A DNA stretch of 64,000 nucleotides from a bacterium (GTDB lineage Bacteria > Bacillota_I > Bacilli_A > RF39 > UBA660): positions 149 to 64,148 of the forward strand of contig CAVIUA010000003.1 in the NCBI GenBank assembly GCA_963645945.1. Direction: 5' to 3'. The notes below the pieces were generated by a model. The model did not search any database and was not told the origin of the DNA. It saw only the letters and a program-made list of their open reading frames with translations. Numbering within the stretch: position 1 is the stretch's first letter; the number at the start of each line of letters is the position of its first letter. Of this stretch, positions 41,854 through 54,306 are shown one piece after another. The translations under genes and the position numbers were made by a program.

Positions 41854-42716
41854 TTATTCTAACAGAAGTCTTACTGTTCCTCTATCTTCTAACTTTGTCT
41901 TAGCATCTGGTGACTGAGAGACTACTTTTTCACCGGATCCAGAATATTCAACAGTAAAGTTAGAAAGGAGTTTTTTAGCGTCTTTTACATTCTTACCTAC
42001 AACATTTGGAACTTCATACATGATTTTATCAGTCCATTCTAAATCTTTTTCCATTCCTTCTTTTTGTTCTTTTATATCTAAGGCATCAATTATATCTAGT
42101 AATATTCTTCTAGCAATAGGTGTTGTGGTATAACTTGATAAAAGAGCGGTATTTTTAGGATTATCTATCGCAAGATATAGAACTGCTTCTGGATCATTTG
42201 AAGGGACTACAGCCATGAATGACATAATATAATTACCTACTAAGTATCTACCATTTTGGACTTTTTGGGCTGTACCTGTTTTTCCGCCAACACGATATCC
42301 TTCAATATAAGCAGCTTTTCCGCCACCTTTCGCAACAACACTTTCTAGTGCATGTCTCATTATGGCTGATGTTTCACTTGAAATTACTTTTCTAACTTGA
42401 CTTTTTTCTGTTTCTTTTATAATGGTATTTGTTTCTTTTTCAGCAATACTTTTTACGATATAAGGCTTATATAAATAGCCATTATTTACTACAGCTGATA
42501 CAGCTGTTACTTGTTGGATAGGTGTGACACTGACTCCTTGACCGAAAGCTGTTGTTGAAAGTTCAACATTACCTACTTTATCTAATGGAAAGATAATACC
42601 TTGACCTTCTCCATTTAAATCGACACCTGTTTTATTACCAAAGCCAAACTTTTCAATGTAGGAGAATAATTTTTCTTTACCAAGCATTTGTCCTAGTTTT
42701 ACGAATCCTGGGTTGC
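41854..42716 (-). pseudogene. 3' half of split class B penicillin-binding protein gene (transpeptidase C-part + PASTA)
   Basis: Begins ..SNPGFVKLGQMLG, with KTGT (GGKTGTAQ) and a C-terminal PASTA-like domain (VPNVVGKNVKDAKKLL). No plausible native start: an in-frame TAA lies 8 codons upstream of the GTG at 42723. Confidence 0.85.
42713..42716. repeat. 4-bp core (ttgc) identical at both element junctions, left copy
   Basis: Same tetranucleotide as at 53261-53264. The PBP coding sequence ends or resumes at this point on each side. Confidence 0.6.
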
Positions 42717-42760
42717 TGGGCACCGGTTTTACCTCTAAAAAAAATTATTCGACATAATAT

Positions 42761-44344
42761 TTAATTCTCAAAATAAATATTTTTTATACTTCCATCTTTA
42801 AAATATATTTCTAAATTCATTTTATATCTAGTTTCTAATTTAGTAACTATAATTTTTTCTATTAACAAATTCGTATACACTTTTAAATTGTTGTATACAT
42901 CACTTAGTTTTTCTATTTCTAAGTCTATATTTTTTAATCTTTGATGATAATCTTTTTTTGTGTCTAAATTTTTTAATTTAGTTTTTATTTTTAATATTTC
43001 TACATCATTTCTATTAAGTCTATCTTTAAGTTCATCACTAGATATTATATTAGATATATTTAAATTAATAAGTTTATCTCTTTTATTGTTTAATTCTTTT
43101 ATTTGTTCTTCTAAAGATAATTTTAATTTATTATTTGATTTAAAAAACACTTCATTACATAAGGATATAAATTCATTTTTCATTAACAATAAATTTTCAC
43201 TAATATATTCTGTTATTACATCACTTATAACTTTGTCTAATACCTTTTCTTTAATAATTGGAGAATCACAAGATAATACTCCTTCATTTTTATACTTTTT
43301 ACATACCCAAGTAGGATTATTTTTTCTATTACTTCCAGCACATCTAACAAATATTTCATTATGCTGATTACATATTAATTTATTTGTATATTTAGATTCA
43401 TCTACTATTTTTTGATTAGTAGTTATATGAATATTTCTAGAATTATATTTTTTTCTATATAATTCATTTGCTTTATTCCATAATTCTTCTGATACAATTG
43501 GATCAATTAAATCTGTTTTATATATTATTTGTTCATTCTTTGGAATTTTAACTTTTTTATGTGTTTTATAACTTTCTACTCTAGTTAAATTAGCAGTATA
43601 ATATCCTTTATATCTAGGATTAATTAAAAACTTTTTTAAAGTTGTACCAGAATAAGCTTTACCATTTTTATTTTTGTATCCTTTTTCATATAAAACATTA
43701 GATATTTTTTCAAATGAATATTTTCCGGTCGCATATAAATTAAATAATATTTCTATTATAGGTCTTTCTTCTTCATTTATAATCATTCTTCCATTTTTAC
43801 GATAATACCCAGTTAAATTACCACCAATAATTTTTCCATCCTTAATCATTCTTTTTATTCCAAATTTAACTCTTTCAGACAATTTTCTAACTTCGTCCTG
43901 TGCAAGAGATGACATTAAAGCAAGCCTAAATTCACTATCTGGGTAAATTGTATTTATATTATCACTTATAAAAAAAACTACCGTACCATTATTAAGAAGT
44001 TCTTCTGTATATTTGATACTATCTACTACATTACGAGAGAACCTAGATATTTCTTTCGTTACAATTAAATCTAATTTACCTTGTTTCGAGTCTTCTATCA
44101 TCCTTAAAAAATTATCTCTATTTTTAACACTTGTGCCACTTATACCTTCATCAATATATTCACCAACTAAATTCCATTTTTTATTCTCATTTATCATTTC
44201 TCTAAAATAATTAGATTGATTTTCCAAACTATTTAACTGATCATCTTTATCTGTAGACACTCTTGCATAATAACCCACATTCAAATTCATATCAAATATA
44301 GTTTTACCAAGTAATAGTTCACTTCTAGTTTGAAGTACATTCAT
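42761..44344 (-). CDS. large serine recombinase
   Basis: 527 aa. N-terminal resolvase catalytic domain (YARVSTDKDDQLNSLENQ), then a recombinase domain, a Cys-rich zinc-ribbon region (CNQHNEIFVRC..WVCKKY) and a C-terminal coiled coil. Confidence 0.9.
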   Translation of the reverse strand: MNVLQTRSELLLGKTIFDMNLNVGYYARVSTDKDDQLNSLENQSNYFREMINENKKWNLVGEYIDEGISGTSVKNRDNFLRMIEDSKQGKLDLIVTKEISRFSRNVVDSIKYTEELLNNGTVVFFISDNINTIYPDSEFRLALMSSLAQDEVRKLSERVKFGIKRMIKDGKIIGGNLTGYYRKNGRMIINEEERPIIEILFNLYATGKYSFEKISNVLYEKGYKNKNGKAYSGTTLKKFLINPRYKGYYTANLTRVESYKTHKKVKIPKNEQIIYKTDLIDPIVSEELWNKANELYRKKYNSRNIHITTNQKIVDESKYTNKLICNQHNEIFVRCAGSNRKNNPTWVCKKYKNEGVLSCDSPIIKEKVLDKVISDVITEYISENLLLMKNEFISLCNEVFFKSNNKLKLSLEEQIKELNNKRDKLINLNISNIISSDELKDRLNRNDVEILKIKTKLKNLDTKKDYHQRLKNIDLEIEKLSDVYNNLKVYTNLLIEKIIVTKLETRYKMNLEIYFKDGSIKNIYFEN

Positions 44345-44462
44345 TTTTTGTCTCCTTTATTATTTCTTCATTCATAATTTTTAATTCATCAAAACTAATT
44401 ATTTTTTTTTGATATAATTCTTTATTAATTATTAATTTCAATTCTTTAATTATTTCTTTCAT
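44325..44462 (-). CDS. 45-aa ORF overlapping the recombinase start (candidate accessory/directionality factor)
   Basis: MKEIIKELKLIINKELYQKKIISFDELKIMNEEIIKETKNECTSN. RBS GGGAGGT lies 4 nt upstream of ATG 44462. The 3' end overlaps the recombinase ATG by 20 nt. Confidence 0.3.
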   Translation of the reverse strand: MKEIIKELKLIINKELYQKKIISFDELKIMNEEIIKETKNECTSN

Positions 44463-44504
44463 ATTTACCTCCCATTTAATTTTATTATAAATTTAAATAA
44501 ATAT

Positions 44505-52324: not shown

Positions 52325-53167
52325 CTAACTTTCCTCTAAATATAATTTATTTATACCATATTTAACATCGATAGCAACACACTTACTAATATTATAACTC
52401 TTTATAATATAAGGAATAATAGTTTCTATATCATTTTTGTTAAATATTTTATATGTCATACATAAAGGTTCAGCTCCTGTTTGATAAGTATAATCTAATA
52501 TATTTTGATTATCTTCTACTTTTAACAATCTAACATATAATCCATATTTTCTTTTGGATATAGAAATAAAATTCCTTTTCGATTTAAATCTATAATCTCT
52601 ATATAATTTATTACAAACAATATTATCTCCTAATTCCATAATTCTATTAGAGATGTTTTTAAACAATAATTCACAAATAGGTTCTTGTGTTTTTTTTAGA
52701 TAATCGTATAATTCTTTGGCTAGTTCAAATGCATATTCCAAATTATTTATATCTTCTACTATTAAATAATAGCGTAAAGATGTATTTTCATAACCTTTTC
52801 TAATTTTTATTTTGTTTTGTAAATCAAATTGTTTAACATCTTTTAAAAAACATATATATAAATCATTTTGATTAATTCGAACTTCTATAACTCTCTTTTT
52901 TAATTTATATACAACAGTTTTTAATAAATAATTTCTTATTATATCTTTTCCTATAGAAATAATATATTCATCAAATTTATCAAATAATTTAATAGTTTCA
53001 TCTTTCTTATTGTAAGTTATATCTTTATAATTACTAGTATCATTATTATAAACTACATTGTTAAGGTTACTTTCTTCACTCATGAGTTTACAATTTTCCA
53101 CCTTAACTTTCCTTTCTAATTTTGGATATTCCTCATTTTTTGAATAAATAACATTATTATAGATCAA
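52325..53167 (-). CDS. hypothetical protein (first gene inside the element)
   Basis: 280 aa from a TTG start; the true start is uncertain. It shows an internal two-fold repeat pattern (..ICFLKDVK..YLIVEDINNLEYAFEL.. / ..YVRLLKVED..YKIFNKNDIETIIPYI..). No family recognised. Confidence 0.35.
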   Translation of the reverse strand: MIYNNVIYSKNEEYPKLERKVKVENCKLMSEESNLNNVVYNNDTSNYKDITYNKKDETIKLFDKFDEYIISIGKDIIRNYLLKTVVYKLKKRVIEVRINQNDLYICFLKDVKQFDLQNKIKIRKGYENTSLRYYLIVEDINNLEYAFELAKELYDYLKKTQEPICELLFKNISNRIMELGDNIVCNKLYRDYRFKSKRNFISISKRKYGLYVRLLKVEDNQNILDYTYQTGAEPLCMTYKIFNKNDIETIIPYIIKSYNISKCVAIDVKYGINKLYLEES

Positions 53168-53260
53168 ATTAAATGTAGAATAGACTTCTATATTGGAATG
53201 ACTTTTATTATTTATATAAGCATCTTCGAACTCAAAAATGTTCCTGTGTAACCACCAAGA

Positions 53261-53264
53261 TTGC
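53261..53264. repeat. 4-bp core (ttgc) identical at both element junctions, right copy
   Basis: Matches 42713-42716. Confidence 0.6.
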
Positions 53265-54306
53265 AGGAATTTTGAAGTACTTGAAGGAAGGTTTGGTCAC
53301 CATGACCGCCAGCTTTCCAACATTTTAAAACGGAACCATCTACATTAACACTACCCGAATCATAAAAATGATCATTTTCAATATCAATTATTTTTTCTTC
53401 TACAGATGTTGCCATTGTAATTATTTTAAATGTAGAACCTGGTTCATATGAAGACCAAACTGGTAAGTTTCTACTTAGTACTTCTTGTGAATACTTTTGA
53501 TAAGTATTAGGATCATAATCTGGACGGGAACCTATACCTAGTATTTCGCCAGTTTTTGGATTCATAACTATCGCTAGAGCCATATCTGGCGAGAACATAT
53601 CAACAATATTATTCAATTCTCTTTCTATAGACTTTTGGATATTTATATCAATAGTTAAATAAAGATTCATTCCATCTTGAGGCTCTACATATATATCTGA
53701 TACATTTAATTTATTTCCTTTGGCGTCAGAAAAGTACTTTATAGCACCAGACTTTCCCGTTAAGTATTTATCATATTGTAATTCCAATCCAGATAGGCCT
53801 TGATTATCTATACCAACATATCCCAAGGAATGAGAAAGTAAGTTTCCATATGGATAATATCTTTTTGCTTCTTTTACCAGATATATGCCATCTAATTTTA
53901 AATTAGATATTTTTTCAGCTATATCATAAGATAATCTTCTTCCTTCTGGATGAACTCTTTCAATAGAAGTCTTTTTATAGACATGTTTTTTCATTTCTTC
54001 ATAGGAAACATTTAATATTTCAGCTAAAGACTTAGTAGCCTTGTCTTTATCTTTTATTTGATTTGGTATTAAGACAAGAGATGTTGTTGTGAGATTGTCG
54101 GCTAGAACAACTCCGTTACGATCAAGTATAAGTCCACGATTTGCTTCTATTGGTAAATCTCTACTCCATAAATATTTTGCATATTCATTTAACTTTTTGT
54201 AGTCAAATACTTGAATATAAAATACTCTTAAAATTATAAATACAAATAGTAGTAACATTATTAAAAATGCTATTTTTATACGTTCATCTATCTTTTTAAA
54301 AAACAT
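53261..54306 (-). pseudogene. 5' half of split class B penicillin-binding protein gene (TM anchor, dimerisation domain, transpeptidase N-part)
   Basis: N-terminal TM, PBP dimer-domain motifs and SxxK (GSTFK). The native sequence runs to ..FLQVLQNSCN. The last 14 codons of ORF 53212-54306 (LGGYTGTFLSSKMLI) are element-encoded. Confidence 0.85.

Follow-up and report, generated by a model that had tools for sequence, protein, structure and literature searches.

A serine-recombinase cassette within the SxN active-site codons of a spoVD-type gene and its relatives in uncultured gut bacteria

How can a cell-wall transpeptidase gene be cut in two within the codons of its own active site, and could the cut be undone? 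The question is raised by a stretch of 64,000 nucleotides from contig CAVIUA010000003.1 (hereafter the window, to which all positions refer unless a related locus is named), assigned to the GTDB lineage Bacilli_A, RF39, UBA660. On its minus strand, two open reading frames (ORFs) at 53212-54306 (364 aa) and 41854-42723 (289 aa) encode the halves of a class B penicillin-binding protein (PBP). Between the halves lies an inserted element (42713..53260; 10,548 bp when one copy of the junction core is counted, GC 24.3% versus ~28% in the flanks) that carries a gene for a large serine recombinase (LSR). A first-pass annotation, made without database searches, had proposed that the two ORFs are halves of one gene; both were found as given, and intact full-length homologues exist. 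The evidence assembled below supports a single gene that a serine-recombinase element has divided and that precise excision would make whole again; in support of this, intact alleles of 98-99% identity sit at the syntenic site.

The 5′ segment of the gene (53261..54306, minus strand) encodes a transmembrane anchor, the PBP dimerisation domain, and the SxxK motif (STFK), its last bases specifying ..NSC and the AA of the following Asn codon. The truncated N-terminal ORF is then closed by an element-encoded tail (53212..53260, minus strand) of 15 codons and a stop; the count after SCN is thus 15 rather than the 14 unrelated codons first reported. The 3′ segment (41854..42712, minus strand) supplies the remainder of the transpeptidase domain with its KTGT motif, one PASTA domain, and the stop codon. 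As originally described, both junctions (53261-53264 and 42713-42716) contain TTGC, which reads GCAA on the coding strand, and fusion of the halves over a single copy of this core reproduced the predicted in-frame gene of 1905 nt (634 aa plus stop), which reads ..LQNSCNPGFVKLG.. across the join. In the rebuilt protein STFK, SCN, and KTGT fall at residues 291, 347, and 493, respectively, and Pfam assigns it PBP_dimer and Transpeptidase domains and a single PASTA domain. Compared with the best 120 intact proteins from the database (631-634 aa), it shows 92-99% identity at 100% coverage, and an alignment to SpoVD from Clostridioides difficile (PDB 7rcz) runs through NSCNP without a break. Moreover, an uninterrupted allele was located at the syntenic position in a contig from a human gut metagenome (L001). 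The junction there reads ..TCCTGCAATCCAGGG.., and the two neighbourhoods share a TlyA-like gene, a 143-aa gene, an ABC-F ATPase, a NUDIX gene, and a 502-aa gene.

The interrupted transpeptidase had been described only broadly, as PBP2B/SpoVD/FtsI-type. The SpoVD part of that description is supported, whereas the other two are not: the rebuilt protein passes the NCBIfam SpoVD equivalog TIGR02214 with 710.6 bits (cutoff 688), and the FtsI, PBP2X, PBP2B, and MrdA models score far under their cutoffs. Its best PDB match is C. difficile SpoVD (7rcz, 414 bits), with the runner-up at 232 bits, and the SxxK, SxN, and KTG motifs as well as a single C-terminal PASTA domain are all present, as expected of SpoVD. 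By these scores and motifs the interrupted gene is SpoVD-type, and the parallel with skin and the SPbeta-type intervening elements of mother-cell genes is therefore apt. The gene order in relatives is spoVD-mraY-spoVE/ftsW-murG-murB-ftsA; in the window, mraY lies four genes downstream of spoVD. A CATAAATAT box (54321..54329, minus strand), 5 nt upstream of the spoVD ribosome-binding site, may correspond to a sigmaE/sigmaK -10 element, the form common to the sigmaE and sigmaK promoters of C. difficile being CATATAAT or CATATTAT (PMC3789822). Among 14 species whose upstream regions are otherwise unalignable, 11 possess a CATA(W)3-type box 12-17 nt upstream of a GGTG ribosome-binding site, compared with 0.49 expected by chance. 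The box lends indirect support to mother-cell expression of spoVD, which we infer from general knowledge of SpoVD together with this motif.

The enzyme that would carry out integration and excision is encoded next to the 3′ segment. The LSR (42761..44344, minus strand; 527 aa) displays the catalytic motif YARVSTDKDDQ and contains three domains above Pfam cutoffs: Resolvase (PF00239), Recombinase (PF07508), and Zn_ribbon_recom (PF13408). It matches PDB 3g13 and the N-terminal domain of TnpX, and YARVST is kept in all LSRs of the family described below. The distance from its stop codon to the core is 44 nt, in agreement with the earlier report of a 527-aa recombinase ending ~45 bp from one junction. 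A 45-aa ORF (44325..44462, minus strand) overlaps the LSR start by 20 nt and is kept in 20 of 20 related loci with sufficient upstream sequence, in addition to the window. Its pN/pS is 0.29 in frame versus 0.87 and 1.59 in the other two frames, values by which the ORF is under purifying selection. Database searches placed it in 39 clusters, none of them named, and found no sequence similarity to any named recombination directionality factor (RDF). A promoter-like motif, TTCATATT-N-TAATAAAAT (44479..44507, minus strand), precedes the 45-aa ORF and the LSR and is kept in 18 aligned loci, where the full conserved block before the ORF is TTCATATT-N-TAATAAAAT-N-GGGAGG. Its conservation, its overlap with the beginning of the LSR gene, and the conserved promoter common to both make the 45-aa ORF the best candidate for the RDF of this system. 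The promoter fits a sigmaA-type TTCATA-17-TAAAAT at 9 of 12 positions and also holds a sigmaE-like TCATATT / CATAWWT, leaving its assignment to sigmaA or sigmaE ambiguous. Across elements, the 45-aa ORF and the LSR form the invariant part.

The boundaries of the element have the form expected for such a recombinase. At attL (53236..53285), host sequence ..AAATTCCTGCAA abuts element sequence TCTTGGTGGTTACACAGGAACAT.., and at attR (42690..42760) element sequence ..ATGTCGAATAATTTTTTTTAGAGGTAAAACCGGTGCCCAGCAA abuts host sequence CCCAGGATTCG.., so the junctions expected of the empty site and of the circle are attB ..AAATTCCTGCAAYCCAGGATTCG.. and attP ..CCCAGCAATCTTGGTGGTTACACAGG.., respectively. 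An alignment of the junctions of the family gave ..AAYTCY TGY AAY|CTTGGAGTAAATACAGGAACAT.. as the consensus of attL and ..ATGTCGAAY-N3-T8AG..CCCRRSAAY|CCNGGNTTYGT.. as that of attR. Because AA(Y) alone is common to every attL/attR pair over ~20 related loci, and the polymorphic Y in attR is always host-type, the crossover dinucleotide is most likely the AA of the SxN Asn codon, with the cleavage position deduced from this pattern. The junction core initially proposed, GCAA, is therefore real at both window junctions but peculiar to the window allele, the family-wide core being only AA. An imperfect CCTG..CAGG dyad, which the first-pass annotation had taken for attB symmetry, fared less well: its arms are 4 bp long and are not conserved in other hosts, where the site is TCTTGTAAYCCNGG. 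Dyad symmetry was accordingly dropped as evidence. Short att sites with a 2-bp non-palindromic core and without long terminal repeats fit LSR-type sites, and a repeat search revealed no terminal repeats at the element ends beyond the core. The element arm of attL is conserved in loci L007, L020, and L039-42. Conservation also exceeds the usual ~25-bp LSR half-site (window 42725-42748; attL side 53215-53260): on the LSR side it takes in ATGTCGAAY-N3-T8AG, 30-50 nt away from the crossover, and on the attL side it covers ~45 nt.

The window is one member of a family. A scan of one genome per GTDB species retrieved 26 loci with LSR homologues at 61-100% identity, in metagenome-assembled genomes (MAGs) labelled uncultured Bacilli, Erysipelotrichaceae, or Tenericutes from the guts of human (Hadza), goat, deer, cattle, and rabbit. 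At 21 of the 26 loci the LSR is followed by the spoVD 3′ half, starting from the same residue ~25-55 bp (usually 52 bp) after the stop codon; at 13, the spoVD 5′ half ends at the same residue 2.8-10.3 kb upstream. Element sizes range over 2.8-10.5 kb, and both spoVD halves are stop-free in all loci but one. Judged by these junctions, the LSR family shares one target codon in spoVD across ~20 species-representative gut MAGs. At two loci (L014:3451-12494 and L025:3176-9749) spoVD is in three pieces, owing to a second LSR in addition to the SxN element. The gene for this enzyme (576 aa, 40-43% identity to the first family) is inserted where spoVD encodes the TFKI of SxxK (STFK). It is preceded by a 53-aa ORF of its own, homologous to the 45-aa one, and accompanied by cargo in the form of an LD-carboxypeptidase-like gene.

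Divergence among the elements scarcely tracks that among the spoVD genes of their hosts. At least seven hosts have LSRs of 97-100% identity, yet between their spoVD 3′ halves identity is just 49-70%, and the Spearman correlation between LSR identity and PBP identity is 0.15. When the window was compared with locus L040, nucleotide identity was 68.6% in the spoVD 5′ half, 89-98% in the element, and 67.5% in the spoVD 3′ half, with no detectable nucleotide identity in the outer flanks of this pair. Since near-identical elements reside in divergent hosts and identity steps at the element borders, these alignments indicate a cassette that spreads horizontally and integrates with high site fidelity. 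Its recombination module also swaps cargo, as judged from L021:7147-8826, where an LSR 98% identical to that of the window is joined to different cargo. That cargo includes an ABC-F ATPase 51% identical to the chromosomal ABC-F of the window.

The circular attP junction predicted by the first-pass annotation was found in one public contig. Locus L007, from the BRZ_FK sample, is an entire 10,077-bp MAG contig that constitutes a circular permutation of the window-type element, lacks ~450 nt of it inside the DUF5655 gene, and runs through the junction ..GACGCCCAGCAA|TCTTGGTGGTTACACAGG.. (also given as ..GCCCAGCAATCTTGGTGG..); such a contig could derive from a free circle or from a tandem dimer. 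Tandem arrangements are seen directly at L020:11560-11702 and L038:930-1075, where hybrid attP-like junctions connect two different family members within spoVD, the second element of L020 being window-type. Metagenomes of the Joint Genome Institute (JGI) gave no match to the window-type attP pattern. A single JGI match to the attP pattern of subfamily 2, considered as a possible circle, proved to be the border of two tandem elements. Separately, the Logan contig L042 starts exactly at AA|TCTTGGTGG (AA|TCTTGG; L042:1-12), meaning that the assembly graph branches at the crossover; this could reflect attL versus attP or equally several host species in the sample, and it was not used as evidence.

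What, then, does the insertion do? That it is a reversible LSR cassette targeting this site we regard as very probable. Our preferred reading, to which we assign a probability of roughly 0.6, is that of an LSR cassette seated at an attB in spoVD and scarlessly removable, with excision in the mother cell as the most likely regime because SpoVD acts in the mother cell and the known paradigm is of this kind. The LSR would recognise the SxN codons of spoVD (..TCY TGY AA|Y CCN GG..) as attB, with crossover at AA, and, by analogy with every LSR studied so far, would need no partner for integration. Recombining attL and attR would in turn require the LSR and a directionality factor, for which the 45-aa ORF is the candidate, and the resulting scarless excision would rebuild the 634-aa SpoVD. 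Insertion would be harmless to growing cells if only the terminally differentiating mother cell requires SpoVD; excision there would restore the gene, and the spore would retain the element, as for skin, SPbeta, gin, and yin. The same excision would yield a circular form able to reach new hosts, where cassettes may exchange cargo and accumulate in tandem. An LSR paired with a small RDF under mother-cell control is documented (PMC5025042, PMC4191935, PMC6957869, PMC5595907, PMC10747680), as is mother-cell excision with the element kept in the spore (PMC4191935, PMC5595907, PMC10747680). Taken by itself, mother-cell-programmed excision is in our estimation an even bet; the timing and cell type of excision are proposed by analogy with these systems, and the hosts, uncultured 'Bacilli' or Erysipelotrichaceae-like MAGs, are presumed to be sporulation-competent.

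Two rival explanations concern the nature of the locus itself. One is a chimeric contig joining unrelated DNA within a PBP gene, and the related data are indeed all metagenome assemblies, some of them mis-binned (contigs labelled Muribaculaceae or Bacteroidaceae). Yet the same junction positions recur in dozens of independent assemblies from different assemblers and host animals, with conserved junction sequences, which makes an assembly or binning artefact extremely improbable. The gene might instead be a vegetative class B PBP (FtsI/PBP2B-like), with the element acting as a reversible phase-variation switch that affects, for example, beta-lactam susceptibility or cell shape. The location of the gene in or near the dcw cluster, beside mraY and a gene of the shape, elongation, division, and sporulation (SEDS) family that also passes the FtsW model, would suit such a role. 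So would the sigmaA-compatible module promoter and the result of scanning ~50 flanking ORFs, among which no second class B PBP was found. Nevertheless, we consider this explanation quite improbable, given that the SpoVD equivalog cutoff is passed and the division-type models score far below theirs, that the protein has a single PASTA domain and C. difficile SpoVD as by far its closest solved relative, that the upstream -10 box is CATA-type and not TATAAT, and that an essential division PBP could not remain interrupted in whole populations.

A weightier challenge is directed at the developmental part of the preferred reading. The insert could be a selfish cassette resembling the staphylococcal cassette chromosome (SCC), with the strongly conserved SxN codons as a landing pad common to several genera, its insertion knocking out a dispensable spoVD and its excision serving transfer only, outside development; carriers would then be cortex-defective or asporogenous, or would be unaffected where sporulation is already being lost. 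Several observations favour this view over programmed excision. The near-identical copies in very different hosts, uncorrelated with host divergence and bounded by steps in nucleotide identity, imply an element that is primarily a horizontally mobile cassette with no obligatory role, and the variable cargo and tandem accretion point the same way. The majority of strains of the window's species have an uninterrupted spoVD, the element being strain-variable and recently acquired. The assembled attP contig L007 counts on both sides: it records an attP junction, but it also suggests an excised or tandem form that is abundant in a gut sample, exceeding what rare mother cells would be expected to supply. 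The module promoter fits sigmaA, and excision therefore need not be limited to the mother cell. Some copies are rearranged or broken: at L017:1-2200, pflB-pflA replaces DUF5655, attL, and the spoVD 5′ half, next to cargo, small ORF, LSR, attR, and spoVD 3′ half that are 97-99% identical to the window (either a rearranged or dead copy or a misassembly), and at L032:4634-5490, on a Hadza contig, a frameshift or stop disrupts the spoVD 3′ half around residue 213, the sister contigs being intact. A loss of many sporulation genes is reported for Erysipelotrichaceae (bioRxiv 10.1101/2022.02.25.481979). NCBIfam and Pfam scans of ~50 of the larger ORFs, taken from the 64-kb window and from regions flanking related loci, identified the dcw genes mraY, spoVE/ftsW, murG, murB, and ftsA, transporters, and similar functions, and found no unambiguous sporulation gene besides spoVD and the spoVE-like gene. 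Finally, the best NCBIfam matches of the LSR are the SCC recombinases CcrB and CcrC, although far under the cutoffs. Set against all this, both spoVD halves are open and alignable end to end in ~25 loci from ~20 species, including those with old LSRs at 61-66% identity; two LSR families have converged on one mother-cell gene, as expected of safe harbours rescued by excision; and the LSR and small-ORF module is under selection everywhere. On balance, a purely selfish cassette appears unlikely.

An extension of the preferred reading can be offered tentatively. spoVD may serve as a dedicated cassette dock in a clade of uncultured gut Bacilli, with at least two LSR families targeting the SxxK and SxN codons, arrays growing by tandem accretion and cargo exchange, and a mother-cell RDF removing the array before cortex synthesis. 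If this is true, catalytic codons that cannot drift would provide a landing pad valid across genera, and sporulation would both tolerate and police the elements that use it.

Several characterised systems resemble the family in part. In skin, which interrupts sigK (B. subtilis SpoIVCA/Skr; C. difficile CD1231/CD1234), the LSR gene is likewise at the border of the element, with the 3′ fragment of the interrupted gene immediately downstream, the target is also a mother-cell sporulation gene, and only the recombinase is common between elements. The RDF of skin is encoded by a small ORF, with B. subtilis skr overlapping the 5′ end of spoIVCA as the 45-aa ORF overlaps the LSR here (PMC6957869, PMC5025042), and the ORF is close in size to SprB and CD1234 (PMC6957869, PMC5025042). 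The present family differs in that its target encodes a cortex transpeptidase instead of a sigma factor, prophage remnants are lacking, the LSR is distantly related, developmental excision is a proposal, and the evidence of recent inter-genus spread is strong. The gin element in gerE of B. cereus ATCC 10987 is likewise a non-prophage, serine-recombinase-driven insertion inside a mother-cell sporulation gene (PMC5595907); however, gin spans 28.6 kb, carries three recombinase genes, and belongs to the B. cereus group, while the elements described here measure 2.8-10.5 kb, encode one LSR and the 45-aa ORF, and occur in ~20 uncultured gut species. SPbeta in spsM, vfbin in spoVFB, vrin in spoVR, and yin in yabG also insert site-specifically into a coding sequence, which an LSR repairs without a scar, and an RDF sets the direction of recombination, but they are prophages or prophage-derived, unlike the element here, which is free of phage structural, lysis, and replication genes.

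Resemblance to SCC and SCCmec (CcrAB, CcrC) extends to an LSR cassette without transfer genes, one conserved site, exchangeable cargo, tandem composites, and spread across species. In contrast to SCC, which inserts at the 3′ end of rlmH (orfX) and leaves that gene active, crossover here falls in codons of a catalytic motif and the gene is lost until excision. Nor is the LSR a Ccr: it scores 110.8 with the CcrB model and 108.3 with CcrC (cutoffs 900), and its site is spoVD, not rlmH. The heterocyst elements of Anabaena (fdxN/XisF, nifD, hupL) offer a further precedent for several elements within genes needed only in a terminally differentiated cell (PMC6957869); the XisF-type serine recombinase gives a weak NCBIfam match to the LSR, and the doubly interrupted spoVD of L014 and L025 recalls genomes with multiple heterocyst elements, although phylum and developmental programme differ and there is no close sequence relationship.

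The first-pass annotation had likened the architecture to skin and SPbeta and had supposed an interrupted transpeptidase with non-phage cargo to be undescribed. The parallel holds, and in the open literature searched, the interrupted sporulation genes are sigK, spsM, spoVFB, spoVR, gerE, and yabG, with spoVD not mentioned in this role; a non-phage intervening element as such was already known in gin (PMC5595907). The family is a previously undescribed, horizontally spreading one, which we classify as a further sporulation-gene intervening element of the skin, gin, and yin class with SCC-like cassette behaviour. Its added interest lies in the catalytic-motif landing pad, the double interruption, the tandem accretion, the cross-genus spread, and the uncultured gut lineages that host it. 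If confirmed, spoVD would join the six genes named above as the first peptidoglycan-synthesis enzyme among genes rebuilt by excision, and the phenomenon, described from isolates of Bacillus and Clostridium, would extend to widespread uncultured lineages in the guts of humans and herbivores. A cassette without transfer genes appears to gain a wide host range by targeting invariant catalytic-motif codons. The natural series of diverged LSR/attB/attP/candidate-RDF sets (61-100% identity, one target) may be useful for genome engineering and for studies of site recognition and directionality, and the question of whether mobile DNA finds 'safe harbours' in mother-cell genes can be approached through the doubly interrupted genes and tandem arrays.

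The remainder of the window element consists of cargo, and every gene of the element has the same orientation as spoVD. Adjoining attL, here as in at least seven element types, is a gene for a DUF5655 protein (52325..53167, minus strand), 280 aa long from a TTG start, although homologues start 22 codons later (258 aa). Its 34 database homologues are all unnamed; a search of PDB gave no sequence match, and an AlphaFold2 (AF2) model with a pLDDT of 72 gave no Foldseek match at E < 0.01. A strong sigmaA-like promoter (TTGACA-17-TAAAAT with TG; 52142..52170, minus strand), identified by consensus scan, precedes an operon of 10 cargo genes (44615..52126, minus strand). In order of transcription, these encode a NUDIX protein (51572-52126), a dTMP-kinase-like protein (50941-51543), an ASCH-like protein (50463-50936), a methyltransferase (49675-50481), an alanine dehydrogenase-like protein (48575-49699), a second methyltransferase (47851-48594), a methyltransferase-like protein (47103-47804), an AlkZ-like DNA glycosylase (46058-47110), a truncated class-I lysyl-tRNA synthetase-like protein with PHLG / KFSKS motifs (PHROG 'tRNA synthetase'; 44970-46058), and an S-adenosylmethionine decarboxylase (44615-44977), all on the minus strand. 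An intrinsic terminator hairpin (44506..44534, minus strand) closes the operon, and a hairpin occupies the same place in most related loci. The gene content of the operon suggests a pathway of nucleotide/DNA modification or of small-molecule metabolism, in which the glycosylase would serve for self-protection. An Rfam search of the window returned no RNA family.

The absence of phage functions from this cargo, noted at first sight, was borne out. No phage structural, lysis, or replication genes were found in the element, where matches to PHROGs are metabolic only; scans of IMG/VR with the LSR and two attP patterns returned no relatives, and LSR matches among GenBank phages are all below 44% identity. 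A phage origin of the element was rejected on account of the empty IMG/VR scans and the purely metabolic PHROGs matches. Several cargo proteins have homologues in phage genomes, as recorded in PHROGs. Searches with Pfam and NCBIfam for relaxase, coupling-protein, and type IV secretion domains found none in the window element or in 20 representative cargo proteins of other elements, oriT lying outside this search; passive, oriT-based mobilisation of the element is possible.

Cargo differs completely among elements and is never phage-like in the 13 other elements examined. The sets encountered comprise HhH-GPD and uracil-DNA glycosylase (UDG) family glycosylases with a methyltransferase and a deoxyribosyltransferase; ASCH, GNAT, and GATase proteins; NUDIX and HAD proteins; a signal peptidase with DUF5305; a nucleotidyltransferase with an S51 peptidase; a glycosyltransferase; and a lone 2398-aa M26 protease-like protein. 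In the smallest elements (2.8-3.0 kb), two small genes are the sole cargo. Genes for DNA repair and nucleotide sanitising (HhH-GPD, UDG, NUDIX, ASCH, deoxyribosyltransferase, HAD) recur in L010, L011, L013, L014, L016, and L024, a theme that runs through otherwise unrelated cargo sets.

Two further observations concern the surroundings of the gene. Within the window, a SEDS (FtsW/RodA/SpoVE) gene lies 30 kb from spoVD beside modules of DUF5305 proteins and SipW-like signal peptidases (7002-11047 and 22132-23265), and the element cargo of L015 includes a similar signal peptidase/DUF5305 module. A few kilobases downstream of the interrupted spoVD of another relative (L012:7476-9506) are genes for a tetracycline ribosomal-protection-like GTPase (534.8 bits, cutoff 775) and a radical-SAM/SPASM maturase.

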